From positions 188,203-252,202 of the forward strand of contig VMGF01000001.1 in assembly GCA_007376445.1 (NCBI GenBank): a stretch of DNA of 64,000 bases, read 5' to 3'. The notes below the pieces were generated by a model. The model saw only the letters and a program-made list of their open reading frames with translations. It was not told the origin of the DNA and ran no database searches. Made by a program: the position numbers and the translations under genes. Below are positions 21,504 through 28,490 of the stretch, in pieces. The first letter of the stretch is position 1. Each line of letters starts with the position of its first letter. Origin of the DNA: Parcubacteria group bacterium Gr01-1014_3. Its GTDB lineage: Bacteria > Patescibacteriota > Minisyncoccia > UBA6257 > WO2-44-18.

Positions 21504-24500
21504 TTACTTTCTAACCCCGATCCAGATATCCACGCCGTTTAACTTCGTGGTAATTTCGGCGTCAAACTTATCCGAACGCTTAAAATCAATGGTTTTCGCG
21601 CTGATGTCCTTTTTAAATTCCGCCTCACTTTCTTCGATCGCTTCCCGTACTTCTGGCGGCACTTCCAGCATCAAAAAGATCGGCTCACCGAGCTTATAAC
21701 CGGCTTCCTGCCGCAAACCCTGCACCGCGCGCACCATTTCACGCACCAATCCCTCTCGCTTTAATTCCGCGGTAATTTCAGTGTCTAATTCAACTTCTTC
21801 CTTGATTTTGGAATCTACCACCACTTCTTTCACGTTTACCTCATCAGCCAGAATATATAATAATTCATCATTAATTTTAAATTTAAAATTTTTAATTTTT
21901 AATTTTTGTAGTGGTTGTCGAATTTTTATTCCCGCCTTTTCTCGAGCAGCCAAACCCAGGCTGGCCAGATTGCGGACTTCAGCCATCGCCGCCAAAATAT
22001 CTTTATTGAATAAAGTTTTGTTCAACTCCGGCCAATCCTGTAAATGCACAGAATTACGAATCATGAATGAGGAATTATGCTTTTTGTTTAATTCTTGATT
22101 CTTAATTCTTGATTCTGGATTCAAGGATTGCCACATCGCTTCTCCAAAAAATGGCGCGAATGGCGCGATTAAGCGGCTCATTTCGGTCAGAACCTTCGCT
22201 AGGGTCGCCGAGGCGCCCTTAAAGTCCGATCCCGGATTCTGGAAGCGTTTGCGTGAACGGCGGATGTGCCAACGGGAAAGATCATCTATAAATGATTCCA
22301 ATTCTCTCGCCGCCGGACCGATCTGGAAATTCTCCAGGTCGGTGGTTACTTTATGGGTTACCTCTTCTAATCGCGCCAAGACCCACTGATCTAAGACGTT
22401 CAACTTGCTAATTTCTAGAGTGGTCGCTGATTTATCCGCATAGCTATCCCAGAATACAAAAGAATTATAAAGGATCAGGAAAAACTTCCTCAAAACTTTA
22501 CCAAGATCATTCTCATCGAAACGCTTCGGCTCGCCAGGATCGTTTACGGTGTAGAAATACCAGCGCAAAACATCCGCGCCGTACTTTTGGATCAGCTGAT
22601 GCGGATCAACCACATTTCCCTTCGATTTAGACATCTTCTGCCCATGTTTATCCAGTAAAAGTCCGAGAGAGATCACATTTTTATAAGGCGTGTCTTTTTT
22701 AAGTAAAGTCGCAACCGCTAAAAGTGTATAGAACCAACCTCGCGTCTGATCAATAGCTTCGCAGATATAATCCGCCGGAAACTGCTCTCCTTTATCCAAG
22801 AGATTTTTATTTTCAAACGGATAATGCCACTGCGCGTATGGCATCGCTCCGGAATCGAACCAGACATCCGCCACTTCCTTTACGCGATCCATTTTTTCCT
22901 CGCAGTCTGGGCATTTCAAGGCGACCTCATCGATAAACGGCCGGTGCACGTCCAGTTCGCCGTTCCGGTCAAAAGGCCAGTTGTGAACAGTGATCTTCCG
23001 ATAGTCTCCAGTTTTCGGATATGGCATCTTCTCGGTCTCTTCAGCAGAAACCCCAGCCAACGCTCCCTCCATCACCCAAAGCGGATCGCCGTGGCTGACT
23101 ATTAAAATATTTTTGCCGCTGTGCTGTCCATTTATTTCCCGAACTGCCTCCATCATCCTGGCCCGGATCTGAGAATAATTTTCGCCGTTGGGCGGAGTCT
23201 TTATGAATCGCTCAGCGAAGTTGGCGTAAAACCCAGTATGATCTTTAACCGGCCGGCCGTTAAAGATTCCGGCATTCACCTCGCTTAATCGCTTATCCTT
23301 GATCACCTTGGCTCCAGTGGCTTTGGCGATGATCTTGGCGGTTTGCATCGTTCGAAAATACGGCGAAGCAAAAATCAGATCGATATTCTCCTTTTTTAAT
23401 TCTTTGCCCAATTTTTCCGCGTCTTTTTCGCCTTTCTCGGTTAGCTTAGAAATGTTGTCTCCTTTTTCAGGTCCAGAGGCCACAAAATCTTTTACGTTAT
23501 GATTGGATTCGCAGTGCCGGGCGATGAAAAACTGATTGGCGCTAAGAGCATGCTTATCCAGGTCGGCAAGACCACCAATCACGATCCTCTTCTCACATTT
23601 TTCGGCGGCTTTGCCGGAATGCTCCCAGATTGGTAGAGGCGTACCCCAATAACGCTGACGAGCGATCGCCCAATCTTTAATATCTTTCAACCATTCTCCA
23701 AAACGGCCTTCTTTCAAATGCTCCGGAGTCCAATTTATTTTTTTATTGGCCGCCAAAAGTTCACTCTTCAATTTGCTCATCTCGATAAACCAAGAGTTGC
23801 GAGCAAAATAGATTAGCGGTGTAGAGCAACGCCAACAATGCGGATATTCATGCTCGATAGATGAGGCGGAATAAAGTAGTTTTCGCCCGGTAAGATCGGC
23901 AATGATGTCTTTATCAGCTTCTTTGACGAATTTTCCAGCTCCCGGTAGGCCTTTTTGTACCATACCGCGATCATCGATAGTCACGACAATACTTTCCTGC
24001 CAGTTCTCCCCCTTGGCGTGCTCGCGGAATAAATTAAGATCGTCTTCGCCAAAAGCCGGGGCGATATGAACTAAACCGGTGCCATCTTCGGTAGAAATAA
24101 AGTCGGCCGGTAATACTTCATAGACGCCCTCGGCGCCTTTGAGATCTTTGTGCGGAAAAAGTGGCTCATATTTTTTGCCAACCAGTTTTTTTCCGGAGAT
24201 CTTCTCTACCACCTCCACCTCTATTTTTTTTCCATCCACCTCAACCGACGGCGGATTGCTATATGACCAAAAAAACTCGTTGCCAGCCTTATATTTCGTG
24301 TAAGTCAGCTTCGGATCCACGGCAACGGCCATATTTGCCGGCAAAGTCCACGGCGTGGTTGTCCAAACCAATAAATAAGTATTCTTTTCACCTTTGAGCG
24401 CGAATTTTACGTAGACCGATGGATCTTTAACTTTTTTATATGCACCTGGCTGGCCTAGCTCGTGGCTGGAAAGCGGCGTCTGACAACGCGGACACCACGG

Positions 24501-25040
24501 AACGATCTTATAAAGTTTTTTCAAAAGTCCGCGCTTATTGATCTCGCCAAAAACCCACCACAAAGTTTCGACATAAGAATTCGCGTAGGTAACGTAAGCG
24601 GTATCAAAATCCAGCCAGAGACCGACCCGCTCGGTTAATTTTTCCCACTCGCTTTTATATTTCCAAACTGAATTTTTGGCCTTGGCGTTGAATTCGGCGA
24701 TGCCGAATTTTTCTATCTCGGATTTATTTTTGATGCCGAGTTCTTTTTCCACTTCCAACTCTACCGGCAAACCGTGAGTATCCCAGCCGGCGCGGCGTAG
24801 CACATAGTGCCCGCGCATAGTTTTATAGCGCAAAATGATATCTTTGAAAGCGCGGGTCAGCACGTGGTGCGTCCCCGGGCGGCCGTTAGCCGTCGGCGGC
24901 CCTTCAAAAAACCTGAAAGGTTTTTTGCCCTGAGTCCGCCGAAGGGCTAAAGACTTCTTAAAAATGTCGTTCTCCTTCCAAAATTTGAGGATCTTCTCCT
25001 CGATCTCCGAAAGAATAAGCTGCTTTAATCCACGCAACAT
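21504..25040 (-). CDS. ileS: isoleucyl-tRNA synthetase (type 2) carrying an inserted histidine-phosphatase (PGAM-like) domain
   Basis: GPPTANGRPGTHH (HIGH-class), KMSKSKGN, editing domain, WHYPFENK; 1178 aa with RHCESNHN ... LIVSHG insert between TPLPIW and DVHRPFIDE. Confidence 0.9.
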   Translation of the reverse strand: MLRGLKQLILSEIEEKILKFWKENDIFKKSLALRRTQGKKPFRFFEGPPTANGRPGTHHVLTRAFKDIILRYKTMRGHYVLRRAGWDTHGLPVELEVEKELGIKNKSEIEKFGIAEFNAKAKNSVWKYKSEWEKLTERVGLWLDFDTAYVTYANSYVETLWWVFGEINKRGLLKKLYKIVPWCPRCQTPLSSHELGQPGAYKKVKDPSVYVKFALKGEKNTYLLVWTTTPWTLPANMAVAVDPKLTYTKYKAGNEFFWSYSNPPSVEVDGKKIEVEVVEKISGKKLVGKKYEPLFPHKDLKGAEGVYEVLPADFISTEDGTGLVHIAPAFGEDDLNLFREHAKGENWQESIVVTIDDRGMVQKGLPGAGKFVKEADKDIIADLTGRKLLYSASSIEHEYPHCWRCSTPLIYFARNSWFIEMSKLKSELLAANKKINWTPEHLKEGRFGEWLKDIKDWAIARQRYWGTPLPIWEHSGKAAEKCEKRIVIGGLADLDKHALSANQFFIARHCESNHNVKDFVASGPEKGDNISKLTEKGEKDAEKLGKELKKENIDLIFASPYFRTMQTAKIIAKATGAKVIKDKRLSEVNAGIFNGRPVKDHTGFYANFAERFIKTPPNGENYSQIRARMMEAVREINGQHSGKNILIVSHGDPLWVMEGALAGVSAEETEKMPYPKTGDYRKITVHNWPFDRNGELDVHRPFIDEVALKCPDCEEKMDRVKEVADVWFDSGAMPYAQWHYPFENKNLLDKGEQFPADYICEAIDQTRGWFYTLLAVATLLKKDTPYKNVISLGLLLDKHGQKMSKSKGNVVDPHQLIQKYGADVLRWYFYTVNDPGEPKRFDENDLGKVLRKFFLILYNSFVFWDSYADKSATTLEISKLNVLDQWVLARLEEVTHKVTTDLENFQIGPAARELESFIDDLSRWHIRRSRKRFQNPGSDFKGASATLAKVLTEMSRLIAPFAPFFGEAMWQSLNPESRIKNQELNKKHNSSFMIRNSVHLQDWPELNKTLFNKDILAAMAEVRNLASLGLAAREKAGIKIRQPLQKLKIKNFKFKINDELLYILADEVNVKEVVVDSKIKEEVELDTEITAELKREGLVREMVRAVQGLRQEAGYKLGEPIFLMLEVPPEVREAIEESEAEFKKDISAKTIDFKRSDKFDAEITTKLNGVDIWIGVRK

Positions 25041-25147: not shown

Positions 25148-25903
25148 GTGAAACAGATAATCGCGGCCTTCCTGATCTTCGCGATTCCGAAAATAGCCTA
25201 CGCCCAAGAAGATTTTTCGATGTCCGGCGAAGCCAGGGTTAAGCAGTTCGTAGTCATGGATGAACCTGATCTGATGAAGATGGACTATTCAAGCTACGAC
25301 TCTACGCCGGATCAAGAAGTAGGTCTGTCGGGTCATTTCCACTTCTGGAGAAAGCTTCACCTCGATGCTTATCCATATTTCTGGTATTCACAAGAAAACA
25401 AGATCGCCCGCGTCGGACTTTTCGGAGAATTTCATTATGATCTCTGGGGCGACTGGCTAGATGTTGGCTTTGGCCACCACAGCTGGCACAACGCCGACGA
25501 ACATTCTCCGAGCGAAAGCGGTCGGAGCCAGAACTGGTTTTCCATGGAATTGAATTTCTGGAATATCAGTCTCGGCGGCGAGAACCATCTCGATCTTTTC
25601 CTGAAGCCGCTTTACTATGTTCAGAACGCCGAACCCGCAGAGCTTAAAACTATTTACGACGGCGATGAATCGGCCGCTTACGCCAAAATCAGCCTGGGCG
25701 CGAAGCTAAACTATGGCAGTCTGGATCTTCAACTCTGGCCCTATGCGGAATTTTCTGATGGTCCCGACCGCTACGGCCTCAAAGCGGAAATATCCTATCC
25801 GCTCTACCGAGGATTCTCCGCTTTCGGTGATCTCCACTATTTCACCATCGACAACGAAGACCGCTGGATGATCGGAATTGGCATAATTATTAGATTTAAA
25901 TAA
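25148..25903 (+). CDS. secreted hypothetical protein (signal peptide, W/Y/D-rich beta-type)
   Basis: GTG start after AAGGAG; MKQIIAAFLIFAIPKIAYAQE signal. Confidence 0.5.
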   Translation: MKQIIAAFLIFAIPKIAYAQEDFSMSGEARVKQFVVMDEPDLMKMDYSSYDSTPDQEVGLSGHFHFWRKLHLDAYPYFWYSQENKIARVGLFGEFHYDLWGDWLDVGFGHHSWHNADEHSPSESGRSQNWFSMELNFWNISLGGENHLDLFLKPLYYVQNAEPAELKTIYDGDESAAYAKISLGAKLNYGSLDLQLWPYAEFSDGPDRYGLKAEISYPLYRGFSAFGDLHYFTIDNEDRWMIGIGIIIRFK

Positions 25904-26013: not shown

Positions 26014-27591
26014 TCACATTTTCTCCGGGGCGGAAATGCCAAGCAAACCAAAAACTTGTTTGAGTACTTTTTCCGTGGCTGCCATAAGAGCCAGGCGGGA
26101 TTGAATTACTTTTCCTTTTTCATCGATCACGCGCTCTTTTTCATAAAAATTGTGCACAGCTCGCGCGATTTCGAGAGCATAGCGAGCCACGCGGCTCACC
26201 TGATAATCGCTGGCGGTCTGCTGGATCATATAGTCATATTTTCCGAGGATCTGAAGCAGTTGCACCTCGGAATCAGCGGAAACATCCGCCAGAGCCGCCA
26301 TTTTCGGCTTCACTCCCGCTTTTTCTAAGATACTCACCGCCCGCACATAGGCGTACTGCGTGTAAAACACCGGATTCTTCGATGACTGCTCTTTCGCCAA
26401 ACCAAGATCGAAATCCATATGCGTATCCGGTGAATGCATCAGGAAAAAGAACCGGGCCACATCTTTGCCGACTTCTTTAATAAGTTCGTCCATCGTCACA
26501 AACTCGCCTTTCCGCTTGGACATCTTCACTTCTTCGCCATTTTCTATCAGGCGAACCAGCTGGGTGATGATTATTTTCAATCTTTCCGGATCCACACCCA
26601 GCGCCTCCACGCCAGACTTCAACCGAGCCACATAGCCATGGTGATCCGCGCCCCAGATGTTGGCGGAGATATCGAATCCGCGTTTTATAAACTTGTCGTA
26701 GTGATAAGCGAGATCGGCTAAGAAATAAGTTGGCTTGCCGTCCGATTTAACTAAGACGCGGTCTTTGTCGTCAGCGATGCCTTCCGTTTTGAGCCAGACG
26801 GCGCCATCGTGTTCGGCCACCAGCTTTTTTGATTTCAAAAATTCCAGAGTTTTTGGGAGTTCTTTTCTCTGATGAAGATTCTTTTGTTCGGAAAACCAAA
26901 CATCAAAGCTGATCCCGGCGTTTTTCACCGATTGTTTAATTTCTTTCAATAATTCCCCCGCCGCCAGCTGGCCGATCTTCAGCGCGTCATCGGTTTTGAT
27001 TTTTGGCTGGATTTTTCGCGCGAGCGTCAGCACATAGGCGCCTTTGTAGTGCTCTTCCTTCGGTTCAGCCTTGCCGATCGCCGCTAAAATACTTTCGCCA
27101 AGCACCCGTACCTGATTGCCAGCGTCATTTATATAGTATTCCCGAGTTACCTTATTACCGACTGCTTCCAAGATATTCGCCAGCGCGTCTCCCAAGAAAC
27201 CGCCACGGCCGTTGGCCATCGTGAGCGGGCCGGTCGGATTGGCGGAGATAAATTCTAAGCAAATTTTTTGCTTACCCTTCGTAGCTTTACGCGAAGAAGG
27301 GAATTTTAAGATGCTTTGCAGTTCCGCGGCGAGCACTTTGGCCGATATCCAGAAATTCACATAACCCGGCGCCACCGCTTCTATTTTTTGAAATATTTTT
27401 TCTTCGTCAGCGGCCCTGATTTTGTCAGCCAGTTTTTTAGCGGCCTCGATCGGCGGAGTTTTCCATTCTTTCGCCAGCAAAAAAGCCGCGCTAGTCGAAT
27501 AATGGCCGTATTCCACGCGGTCGGTCATCATCACCTGGCCCACTTCCCGGCCAAGCGCCTTCGTAACTATGTTCTGGATCTTATTAATCAT
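26014..27591 (-). CDS. argS: arginyl-tRNA synthetase (degenerate HIGH: TMAN)
   Basis: N-terminal Arg-tRNA-synthetase domain, SANPTGPLTMANGRGG, KMSKRKG, DALR anticodon-binding tail FYTQYAYVR. Confidence 0.85.
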   Translation of the reverse strand: MINKIQNIVTKALGREVGQVMMTDRVEYGHYSTSAAFLLAKEWKTPPIEAAKKLADKIRAADEEKIFQKIEAVAPGYVNFWISAKVLAAELQSILKFPSSRKATKGKQKICLEFISANPTGPLTMANGRGGFLGDALANILEAVGNKVTREYYINDAGNQVRVLGESILAAIGKAEPKEEHYKGAYVLTLARKIQPKIKTDDALKIGQLAAGELLKEIKQSVKNAGISFDVWFSEQKNLHQRKELPKTLEFLKSKKLVAEHDGAVWLKTEGIADDKDRVLVKSDGKPTYFLADLAYHYDKFIKRGFDISANIWGADHHGYVARLKSGVEALGVDPERLKIIITQLVRLIENGEEVKMSKRKGEFVTMDELIKEVGKDVARFFFLMHSPDTHMDFDLGLAKEQSSKNPVFYTQYAYVRAVSILEKAGVKPKMAALADVSADSEVQLLQILGKYDYMIQQTASDYQVSRVARYALEIARAVHNFYEKERVIDEKGKVIQSRLALMAATEKVLKQVFGLLGISAPEKM

Positions 27592-27643: not shown

Positions 27644-28087
27644 ATGAGCTTAATAGTAGAAAATAGTAAGGCTTACTTCAACTATGAGATTCTCGAAAAA
27701 TACGAAGCGGGAGTTGAATTGAAGGGGTATGAAGTGAAAGCAGTTAAAGCCGGCCGGGCTCATTTGGCCGGAGCTTTCGCGACCGTCAAAGATAATCAGA
27801 TCTGGCTCACCAACGCCGACATCCAGCCATATCAGCCGAAAAACACCCCCGCCGGCTATGACCATACCCGCCCCCGCCGCCTCCTCTTAAATAGGAAGGA
27901 AATTAACTATCTGATCAGCAAGATGAAGTCCGATAAGTTGACAATAGTGCCTTTAAAGTTGTATAATAAAGGCGGTCGGATCAAGATTGAGCTCGGTTTA
28001 GCTCGCGGCAAGAAGCAATACGAAAAGCGCGAGAAGATCAAAAAACGAGAAGTTCAACGCGAGATCCGGCGCACGTTAAAATCGTAA
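27644..28087 (+). CDS. smpB: SsrA-binding protein SmpB
   Basis: YFNYEILEKYEAGVELKGYEVKA...; Lys/Arg-rich C-tail. Confidence 0.9.
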   Translation: MSLIVENSKAYFNYEILEKYEAGVELKGYEVKAVKAGRAHLAGAFATVKDNQIWLTNADIQPYQPKNTPAGYDHTRPRRLLLNRKEINYLISKMKSDKLTIVPLKLYNKGGRIKIELGLARGKKQYEKREKIKKREVQREIRRTLKS

Positions 28088-28165: not shown

Positions 28166-28480
28166 GGGGATGAAAGGCCTCGACGAAGACTTTTCTTTAA
28201 TAATCGCAAGCCGAGCTGAACTCGCTCGTAAAACCGGTTCAAAATCTTAATTGCTAACCAAAAATTAGCTTTAGCCTACGCGTAATAGCGTTTGCTCATC
28301 GGCGGCTTGATGTCCTATCGGGTCATCACCGGTGTTATATCTAGGACTTAAGAAATGCTCTCGTGATTCCGGGATCATTTACGAAAACCAATGAATCATT
28401 CGTTCTGATTTATCAGATCTAAGCTTGTAGAAGTTATTACTGAAAATTTTCGGATGTCGGTTCAACTCCGACCATCTCCA
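28166..28480 (+). ncRNA. ssrA: tmRNA (ssrA), tag reading frame (A)NQKLALAYA
   Basis: 5' GGGGAUGAAAGGCCUCGACG and 3' GGAUGUCGGUUCAACUCCGACCAUCUCCA resemble the E. coli tmRNA ends; acceptor GGGGAUG/CAUCUCC; in-frame gct aac caa aaa tta gct tta gcc tac gcg taa; lies immediately after smpB. Confidence 0.75.
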
Positions 28481-28490
28481 CTACTTCGCA

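Follow-up and report, generated by a model that had tools for sequence, protein, structure and literature searches.

A complete histidine-phosphatase domain nested within the type-2 isoleucyl-tRNA synthetase of a Parcubacteria group bacterium

Aminoacyl-tRNA synthetases are very well studied, and the extra catalytic modules known in them are mostly editing domains. The described systems closest to the one presented here are the type-2 isoleucyl-tRNA synthetases (IleRS), represented by the Priestia megaterium structures 8c8w/8c8u and the Thermus thermophilus structure 1ile, and the phosphatases PhoE (1h2e, 1ebb) and PspA/iPSP1 (4ij5, 4ij6), which have the compact fold, of ~200 amino acids (aa), of branch 1 of the histidine phosphatase superfamily. 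Here, we describe a gene in which both occur in one reading frame. It lies in a 64,000-nucleotide (nt) stretch of DNA (the window; positions 188,203 to 252,202 of contig VMGF01000001.1, assembly GCA_007376445.1) from Parcubacteria group bacterium Gr01-1014_3; unless another locus is named, coordinates refer to this window. The gene, ileS (21504-25040, minus strand), encodes a type-2 IleRS of 1178 aa, and its sequence and structural model indicate that residues 499-694 (22959-23546, minus strand) are a complete histidine-phosphatase domain nested in the synthetase, such that the protein is predicted to be bifunctional.

With 8c8w/8c8u and 1ile, the window protein shares homology over the full length, an editing domain, the KMSKS motif, the C-terminal domains, and the GXHH form of the HIGH motif; where those enzymes have 6 residues, however, it has a 196-aa enzyme domain. 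The insert, in turn, has the fold of PhoE and PspA with the RH, R, E, and H residues aligned, but those proteins are free-standing and 27-28% identical to it, whereas the insert family is tied to ileS and carries motifs of its own (N-x-[YF]-F-x-x-R-H and S-H-G-D-P-L-W). There are also partial precedents for the architecture. The bifunctional RNase H/acid phosphatase (Rv2228c type, NF005567) joins a branch 1 histidine phosphatase to a nucleic-acid enzyme, but the fusion is end to end and to another partner, and the insert, at 65-79 bits, falls far below the 326-bit cut-off. The family ileS_w_GNAT (NF040702) is a precedent for an IleRS with an embedded enzyme, but the embedded domain is an N-acetyltransferase (GNAT), and the window protein (277 bits versus 1999) is not a member. 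PFKFB, like the window protein, has a histidine-phosphatase domain fused to an ATP-using enzyme; it differs in its weak similarity (E ~1e-4), its eukaryotic origin, its end-to-end fusion, and its opposing activities on one metabolite. A histidine-phosphatase active site of this kind with bound inorganic pyrophosphate (PPi), 3qpu, is among the Foldseek matches to the insert.

By profile, catalytic core, and fold, the insert belongs to branch 1 of the histidine phosphatase superfamily. The Pfam profile His_Phos_1 (PF00300) matches aa 505-677 (E=1.7e-35; 122.9 bits against a cut-off of 21.7; profile positions 2-174 of 194), and among sequences in the PDB the insert is closest to Hydrogenobacter thermophilus PspA (4ij5; 2.8e-17) and Geobacillus stearothermophilus PhoE (1ebb; 1.3e-16), with R508, H509, R563, E587, and H650 aligned with the catalytic residues of both. 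The full-length AlphaFold model has a mean predicted local distance difference test score (pLDDT) of 91.4 and a predicted TM-score (pTM) of 0.85, with values of 94-98 in the insert and 93-95 at both junctions; modeled alone with AlphaFold 2 (AF2), the insert scores 90.5. In Foldseek, the excised domain superimposes on the PspA and PhoE structures 4ij6, 1h2e, and 1ebb with E-values of 4e-15 to 4e-13 and TM-scores of 0.78-0.80. The original prediction, made from the DNA letters alone, had proposed just such a complete fold in frame at 22950-23540 and had asked for a profile search and a structure prediction; the significant match, the single open reading frame (ORF), and the confident model all bear it out, and its coordinates agree with those given by alignment.

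We followed conservation in two sets, the closest 120 homologues (55-65% identical overall and ~50% within the insert) and 160 domain copies covering every architecture described below. The RHG motif with the nucleophilic histidine, here R508-H509-C510 (23511-23519, minus strand, as are all features of the protein), has its Arg and His in 120/120 homologues and at 156/156 non-gap positions across all architectures. The second phosphate-binding arginine, R563 of the SPYxRT motif (23352-23354), is present in 120/120 homologues and in 159 of the 160 copies, and the putative general acid, E587 (23280-23282), is Glu in 119 homologues and Asp in 1 (Glu or Asp in 158/160 copies). The second catalytic histidine opens a family-specific motif, H650-G-D-P-L-W (23076-23093), in which H650 occurs in 120/120 homologues and W655 in 115/120; P653 is invariant there, as are N502, T534, G537, S559, G591, E620, and R628. 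Because this full catalytic set (the Arg-His nucleophile, the second Arg, the Glu/Asp acid, and the second His) is kept in essentially every copy, the nested domain is very probably an active phosphohydrolase. Every motif that the original prediction had quoted reads as given when translated (RHC, R563, E587, and HGDPLW were verified), including the Gly-to-Cys change in RHG. Residue 510 is G in 74, T in 16, C in 15, A in 7, and P in 3 of the 120 homologues; since the position varies in this way across the family, C510 is no sign of decay.

Judged by its sequence, the insert is a phosphatase-type member of branch 1 whose subfamily specificity lies outside the curated models, and a mutase is excluded. 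For cofactor-dependent phosphoglycerate mutase (dPGM), the insert reaches 32 bits against 81.7 (pgm_1, TIGR01258) and 85-89 against 225 (dPGM_arch, NF038349); PDB matches to dPGM are weak and partial (E 1e-4 to 1e-5), and the insert reads E-V-N-A-G at the general acid, where the dPGM motif is E-R-H-Y-G. Metal-independent phosphoserine phosphatase PspA (NF045917; 82-87 bits, cut-off 350), alpha-ribazole phosphatase CobC (TIGR03162; 74-78 bits, cut-off 162.9), and SixA (33 bits, NCBIfam cut-off 74.5) were rejected as identities, as was GpmB, whose curated cut-off is likewise missed. None of the established inorganic pyrophosphatase families (Pyrophosphatase, DHH/DHHA2, H_PPase) is among the Pfam matches on the window protein.

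The host enzyme is a type-2 IleRS whose sole departure from that class is a HIGH motif that reads GTHH. Its reading frame is unbroken, with 0 N bases, and its product is identical to the public entry [quoted passage not shown] The ileS model TIGR00392 scores 878 bits (cut-off 621), with the type-2 enzymes MupA and MupB as the next-best NCBIfam models (770-775 bits). Pfam splits the tRNA-synt_1 match into two stretches that flank the His_Phos_1 match and also finds Anticodon_1 and DUF5915, and the AF2 model resembles 8c8w and 1ile (TMt 0.81-0.92). The N-terminal part (aa 1-498, 23547-25040) aligns to 8c8w and holds the first half of the Rossmann fold, the connective peptide 1 (CP1)/editing domain, and the start of the zinc-knuckle connective peptide; the C-terminal part (aa 695-1178, 21504-22958), which also aligns to 8c8w, holds HRPFID, WFDSG, DQTRGWF, KMSKS (aa 802-806, 22623-22637, checked by translation), and the anticodon-binding and C-terminal domains. 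None of the 120 homologues departs from the editing motifs TTTPWTLP and GTGLVHIAPAFGEDD, H325/D334 included. With KMSKS, the editing motifs, and the anticodon-binding and C-terminal domains all conserved, the IleRS part looks fully functional. The GTHH motif (aa 56-59, 24864-24875, read by translation) is a noncanonical GXHH form of the class I HIGH motif, and GIHH is the consensus among the 120 homologues. The GXHH variant occurs naturally in some IleRS2 and is linked by Brkic et al. 2023 (PMC10485003) to mupirocin hyper-resistance; the whole clade may be intrinsically insensitive to mupirocin. As a separate observation, an Asn/Lys-rich stretch in the anticodon-binding region (…RIKNQELNKKHNSSF…, aa 981-993, ~22062-22100) has no counterpart in the aligned Priestia megaterium IleRS2 (PmIleRS2) and is the sole part of the model with a pLDDT below 50.

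The borders of the insert were defined by alignment to the solved structure of PmIleRS2 (8c8w). Residues 12-498 of the window protein correspond to residues 12-478 of 8c8w, and residues 695-1117 correspond to residues 485-894; thus, the insert comprises aa 499-694 and replaces 6 residues. Alignment with insert-less Parcubacteria IleRS gives identical borders, so the junctions are clean against both references. The original prediction had put the insert at ~190-230 aa and the excess over the usual protein at ~140 aa. The insert is 196 aa (193-210 aa in 120/120 homologues), within the lower part of that range and short of 230; the excess is close to the mark against PmIleRS2 (146 aa), but against the insert-less Parcubacteria orthologues (946-976 aa) it is 200-230 aa. 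Brkic et al. 2023 (PMC10485003) give the Rossmann-like (HUP) catalytic core of PmIleRS2 as residues 40-168 and 513-632, which places the insertion site (PmIleRS2 479-484) in CP2, a short way ahead of where the core resumes; the division of the connective peptides into CP core, editing domain (ED; CP1), CP2, and CP3 follows PMC11685878.

Seen along the sequence, the insert follows WGTPLPIW and the first Cys pair and precedes HRPFID, the second Cys pair, and WFDSG, such that the zinc-knuckle connective peptide is split between its two Cys pairs. Both cysteines of the second pair, C710-P-D-C713 (22902-22913), are invariant in the 120 homologues; in the first pair, C479 is found in 109/120 and C482 in 93/120, and the window protein has A479 and C482. 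The window protein also carries a 5-aa insertion of its own, HSGKA (within aa 474-482, 23595-23621), which is absent from >110 of the 120 homologues. In this protein, the split knuckle may bind zinc differently or not at all. At the other end, the chain returns to IleRS through the junction motif N687-W-P-F (22971-22982; N in 118/120 and P in 118/120), where the model has a pLDDT of 94-95. This NWP(Y/F) motif is kept in fused IleRS, and the stand-alone phosphatases described below end just before it and lack it.

The same fusion is present in related genomes, as the original prediction had asked to be surveyed. All of the best 120 homologues (1119-1219 aa) carry both PF00133 and PF00300; they come from Harrison-, Colwell-, Zambryski-, and Liptonbacteria, Minisyncoccota, and Paceibacterota and from NCBI, JGI, ENA, and Logan assemblies. 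When one genome per GTDB species was scanned, at least 510 stretches were confirmed, among them those in the complete or near-complete Paceibacteria genomes CP179887.1 and AP024682.1, both of which have the insert. The best 80 stretches were analyzed as loci; these 80 bear names of the Parcubacteria group, and in 71 of them the domain lies in frame within IleRS at the same site. A few third-party annotation (TPA) metagenome bins labeled Saccharibacteria or Gammaproteobacteria are probably loosely named. The fusion is also spread across considerable sequence distance, in that the IleRS parts of some carriers share no more than 35-40% identity with the window protein.

When the insert was used as the query of an exhaustive search, free proteins of ~190 aa came up as well. 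These have 35-46% identity to the insert, align with it end to end, and share the motifs N-x-Y-F-x-L-R-H-G and S-H-G-D-P-L-W. A profile built from these free proteins finds 1172 proteins, the best 120 of which are all free-standing and are entered by their sources as "PhoE" or [quoted passage not shown] Two free phosphatases of ~190 aa (P0366 and P0377) are misnamed "isoleucyl-tRNA synthetase" by JGI, presumably by annotation transfer from the fused proteins. The genomic position of the free form is informative. In seven of seven metagenome loci, the phosphatase gene immediately precedes, on the same strand, an ileS without the insert (946-976 aa); the two overlap by 4 nt or are 2-20 nt apart, and the phosphatase gene is usually directly downstream of argS. 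Likewise, 9 of the best 80 GTDB loci have a separate phosphatase gene ahead of an insert-less ileS; the spacing is close except in L056, where ~1 kb separates the two. Sister genomes read smpB/argS/phosphatase/ileS; the window reads polX, nudix, rplT, infC, smpB, tmRNA, argS, ileS, with the phosphatase inside ileS. An extra upstream copy is found in no insert-bearing locus, making the nested and separate forms mutually exclusive, and the 64-kb window contains neither a second phosphatase copy nor a second ileS. Phosphatase and ileS stay adjacent even where toxin-antitoxin genes stand in place of argS (L091) or where recO is replaced (L090). The nested and separate states are interleaved in an approximate IleRS tree, implying that the state changed more than once or that alleles were exchanged. 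Neighbor-joining trees of the domain are star-like and poorly resolved, with stand-alone and inserted forms again interleaved, and for this reason they do not permit a firm count of insertion events.

The family also occurs in other architectures, with insertion positions read here from motif order. One IleRS (P0190; L092, 6001-10260) has a copy between WFESG and DQTRGWF and a second after KMSKS, with its zinc module uninterrupted; its 90%-identity cluster has 6 members on contigs of up to 1 Mb. The neighbors of this gene (purA, DAHP synthase, SufBD, and an SLH-domain protein) are atypical for Parcubacteria, which suggests that the L092 organism lies outside the typical members of that group. 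In another IleRS (P0165; L095), one copy follows the second CxxC and the other precedes DQTRGWF; in two more (P0209 and P0173), a tandem pair occupies the main site; and one (P0248) has several copies. In a 1395-aa IleRS known from a single contig (P0249), the phosphatase at the main site is accompanied by a P-loop kinase-like domain (Pfam AAA_18/AAA_33; residues ~735-905, between WFESG and DQTRGWF) with marginal matches (E ~0.02-0.06) to adenosine 5'-phosphosulfate (APS), shikimate, and polynucleotide kinases. The catalytic residues are retained in every copy of these multicopy and other-site IleRS. Beyond IleRS, the phosphatase is found at the C terminus of an arginyl-tRNA synthetase (ArgRS; P0189, L093, 5001-7070), with recO directly next and ileS missing from its usual position; fused to Sua5/YrdC, the threonylcarbamoyl-AMP synthase (P0184); and at the N terminus of ATP sulfurylase (P0156, L087, 8001-9707, and P0398; three members from three sources). 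The C-terminal APS-kinase domain of the other ~118 listed homologues is missing from the ATP-sulfurylase fusions, and a sulfotransferase gene stands next after the fusion (P0156), within a glycan-synthesis cluster.

In total, phosphatase and IleRS have been kept together, or brought together anew, on many occasions: the phosphatase is nested at the main site, is encoded just upstream with translational coupling, occupies three further positions within the IleRS catalytic domain in other lineages, and is found in tandem copies. The insert matches an entire gene, which sister Parcubacteria carry as an ORF overlapping or abutting the start codon of an insert-less ileS. Because the pairings are repeated and differently built, the two forms are mutually exclusive, and the junctions are conserved and rigid, we think it probable that the phosphatase works together with IleRS and is not riding along. 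That the protein is a bifunctional IleRS-phosphatase and that its two activities are functionally coupled, taken as one statement, we hold to be somewhat better than an even bet.

What might such an enzyme act on? IleRS, ArgRS, TsaC, and ATP sulfurylase all convert ATP and a substrate to an adenylate and PPi. Because every fusion partner makes an adenylate and releases PPi, PPi is the most economical common substrate, and we tentatively put it forward, by analogy across the partners, as a candidate substrate of the nested phosphatase. In this model, PPi would be hydrolyzed beside the synthetic site via a phospho-histidine intermediate, which would make amino-acid activation irreversible. Inorganic pyrophosphatase (PPase) activity has been reported for an enzyme of the histidine phosphatase superfamily (PMC7926622). 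The original prediction had suggested that the domain could process a nucleotide alarmone, 2',3'-cyclic or 3'-phospho tRNA ends, or a phospho-substrate linked to proofreading; the other fusion partners point more towards PPi or an adenine-nucleotide product than towards proofreading. It is thus conceivable, if on balance doubtful, that Parcubacteria and at least one other lineage have equipped IleRS, and occasionally ArgRS, TsaC, or ATP sulfurylase, with its own PPase of histidine-phosphatase fold. The logic, removal of PPi so that adenylation is drawn forward, would be that of inorganic pyrophosphatases coupled to adenylate-forming enzymes, including reported ATP sulfurylase-pyrophosphatase fusions. 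The resemblance of the insert to PPases would be functional only, and it is hypothetical: known PPases are of family I, family II (DHH), or the membrane H+-PPase type, and to our knowledge none has a histidine-phosphatase fold. A family I PPase was not found in the 64-kb window by tblastn with an Escherichia coli Ppa sequence or by a PROSITE-type motif, a result that says little about the genome.

Several points weigh against this proposal. PPi does not explain the preference for IleRS over all other synthetases, and the activity characterized in the branch 1 relatives PhoE, PspA, and CobC is that of a phosphomonoesterase rather than a pyrophosphatase. In the ATP-sulfurylase fusion, Gln takes the place of the general acid, and the sulfotransferase gene that adjoins it suggests adenosine 3',5'-bisphosphate (pAp) as an alternative substrate. 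The Sua5 fusion is known from one 3.7-kb contig, and the ArgRS fusion may be a reflection of gene adjacency. Finally, given the poor resolution of the neighbor-joining trees, it is uncertain how many times the domain was inserted at the main site.

These data also need to be set against explanations in which there is no fusion, no activity, or no coupling. Could an assembly join or a frameshift have fused two separate genes, or could the insert be an intein-like element that is spliced out of the protein? The same in-frame arrangement in 71 independent species genomes and 120 protein clusters refutes this and leaves it practically no chance. At ileS itself, the frame runs through without a frameshift or an assembly join, the GC content does not change at the borders, the repeats around the insert, direct or inverted, do not go beyond chance-level 14- to 15-mers, and IleRS would not work from either half alone. 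Nor is the segment a subdomain widespread in IleRS, which the original prediction had named as grounds for refutation. An intein was rejected, given that Pfam finds no HINT domain, that the insert folds as a histidine phosphatase, and that H686-N687 is followed by Trp, which is not an intein nucleophile. A catalytically dead structural or RNA-binding module with a phosphatase-like fold would be in keeping with the loss of the RHG glycine in the window protein and with the many synthetase accessory domains that are noncatalytic, but it has only a slender chance considering that five catalytic residues are invariant or nearly so in the 120 homologues and 160 copies while the domain as a whole is ~50% identical. 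The domain might instead be an active passenger, a housekeeping phosphatase that sat upstream of the ancestral ileS, was captured in a permissive surface loop with no link to aminoacylation, and is now locked in because its removal would damage an essential enzyme. The smpB-argS-(phosphatase)-ileS-recO order is strongly syntenic, such that adjacency could simply be inherited; the connective-peptide loop that holds the insertion differs from one class I synthetase to another; and the nearest characterized relatives use small metabolites. Against capture by chance, adjacency to ileS outlasts the broken flanking synteny at L090 and L091, the domain sits at three or more other IleRS sites in other lineages (one of them outside the typical Parcubacteria context), every non-IleRS partner found is an adenylate-forming enzyme, and the junctions are conserved and modeled as rigid. 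We therefore consider a passenger unlikely.

If the phosphatase is active and coupled to IleRS, other substrates than PPi can be entertained. One is the 3' end of tRNA, where the domain would strip a 3'-phosphate or 3'-pyrophosphate from the terminal adenosine (e.g., after toxin damage) or act on adenosine 3'-phosphates like pAp. The A76 end is bound by IleRS and ArgRS alike, the insertion sites cluster at the synthetic-site motifs where A76 enters, and the ATP-sulfurylase fusion, without APS kinase and with a sulfotransferase gene next to it, recalls that pAp is the by-product of sulfotransferases; toxins that pyrophosphorylate the tRNA CCA end were reportedly described by Kurata and colleagues in 2021. 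However, TsaC/Sua5 and ATP sulfurylase do not bind tRNA ends, we know of no member of the histidine phosphatase superfamily with RNA 3'-end activity, and it is unexplained why tRNA-Ile alone should need repair, all of which makes this reading decidedly unlikely. Another is a phosphoprotein, either IleRS itself or a partner, with the domain reversing, for example, inhibition by HipA-type kinase toxins, which target other synthetases. SixA, Sts-1, and PGAM5 are protein phosphatases of the superfamily, SixA is among the weak NCBIfam matches (33 bits versus 74.5), and tethering in cis suits a substrate on the same protein; but the nearest relatives are small-molecule phosphatases, a linked kinase gene was found at none of the seven metagenome loci examined, and the TsaC and ATP sulfurylase fusions would be left unexplained. 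We give a protein substrate very little credence. PPi hydrolysis by the nested domain, tentative as it is, remains the substrate assignment that we prefer.

The genes around ileS conform largely to the block seen in related genomes. The conserved upstream neighbor, argS (26014-27591, minus strand; identified by ORF and synteny), encodes an ArgRS of 525 aa. It is followed by smpB (27644-28087, plus strand) and the directly adjoining tmRNA (28166-28481, plus strand), the tag peptide of which is ANQKLALAYA, and after the tmRNA come infC, rplT, a Nudix gene, and a PolX-PHP polymerase, a block mirrored in related loci. Between argS and ileS, on the opposite strand (25148-25903, plus strand), is a 251-aa ORF with a signal-peptide-like N terminus and no Pfam match. 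This lineage-specific ORF fills the slot of the stand-alone phosphatase gene of sister genomes, and among 83 related loci it has a homologue (42% identity) only in the closest, L007.

The two protein families are known ones; the novelty lies in their nested architecture, in the operon-encoded alternative to it, and in its recurrence. The architecture is visible in precomputed Pfam annotations, where the proteins are named "class I tRNA ligase family protein" or "isoleucyl-tRNA synthetase." Term searches of the full-text literature, including a paper on synthetases of the candidate phyla radiation and papers of 2023 and 2026 on IleRS structure and evolution, found no IleRS/histidine-phosphatase fusion, in line with the view of the original prediction that the fusion had not been described. 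The case also exposes an annotation error, in that free phosphatases are labeled "isoleucyl-tRNA synthetase," and it illustrates how a neighboring gene can end up inside an essential one. The stand-alone phosphatase with its insert-less IleRS is a natural split control.

More generally, a complete second enzyme with a different chemistry sits inside the catalytic domain of a synthetase, and hundreds of species have this arrangement or its operon-encoded alternative. If the PPi proposal is true, this would be an unrecognized kind of PPase that removes PPi where the adenylate forms, and it might replace a missing conventional PPase in reduced genomes. Is the need one of product removal, of tRNA-end repair, or of regulation? 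Each is a candidate, and the pattern as a whole implies an unrecognized need tied to isoleucine activation or tRNA-Ile charging in bacteria of the candidate phyla radiation.

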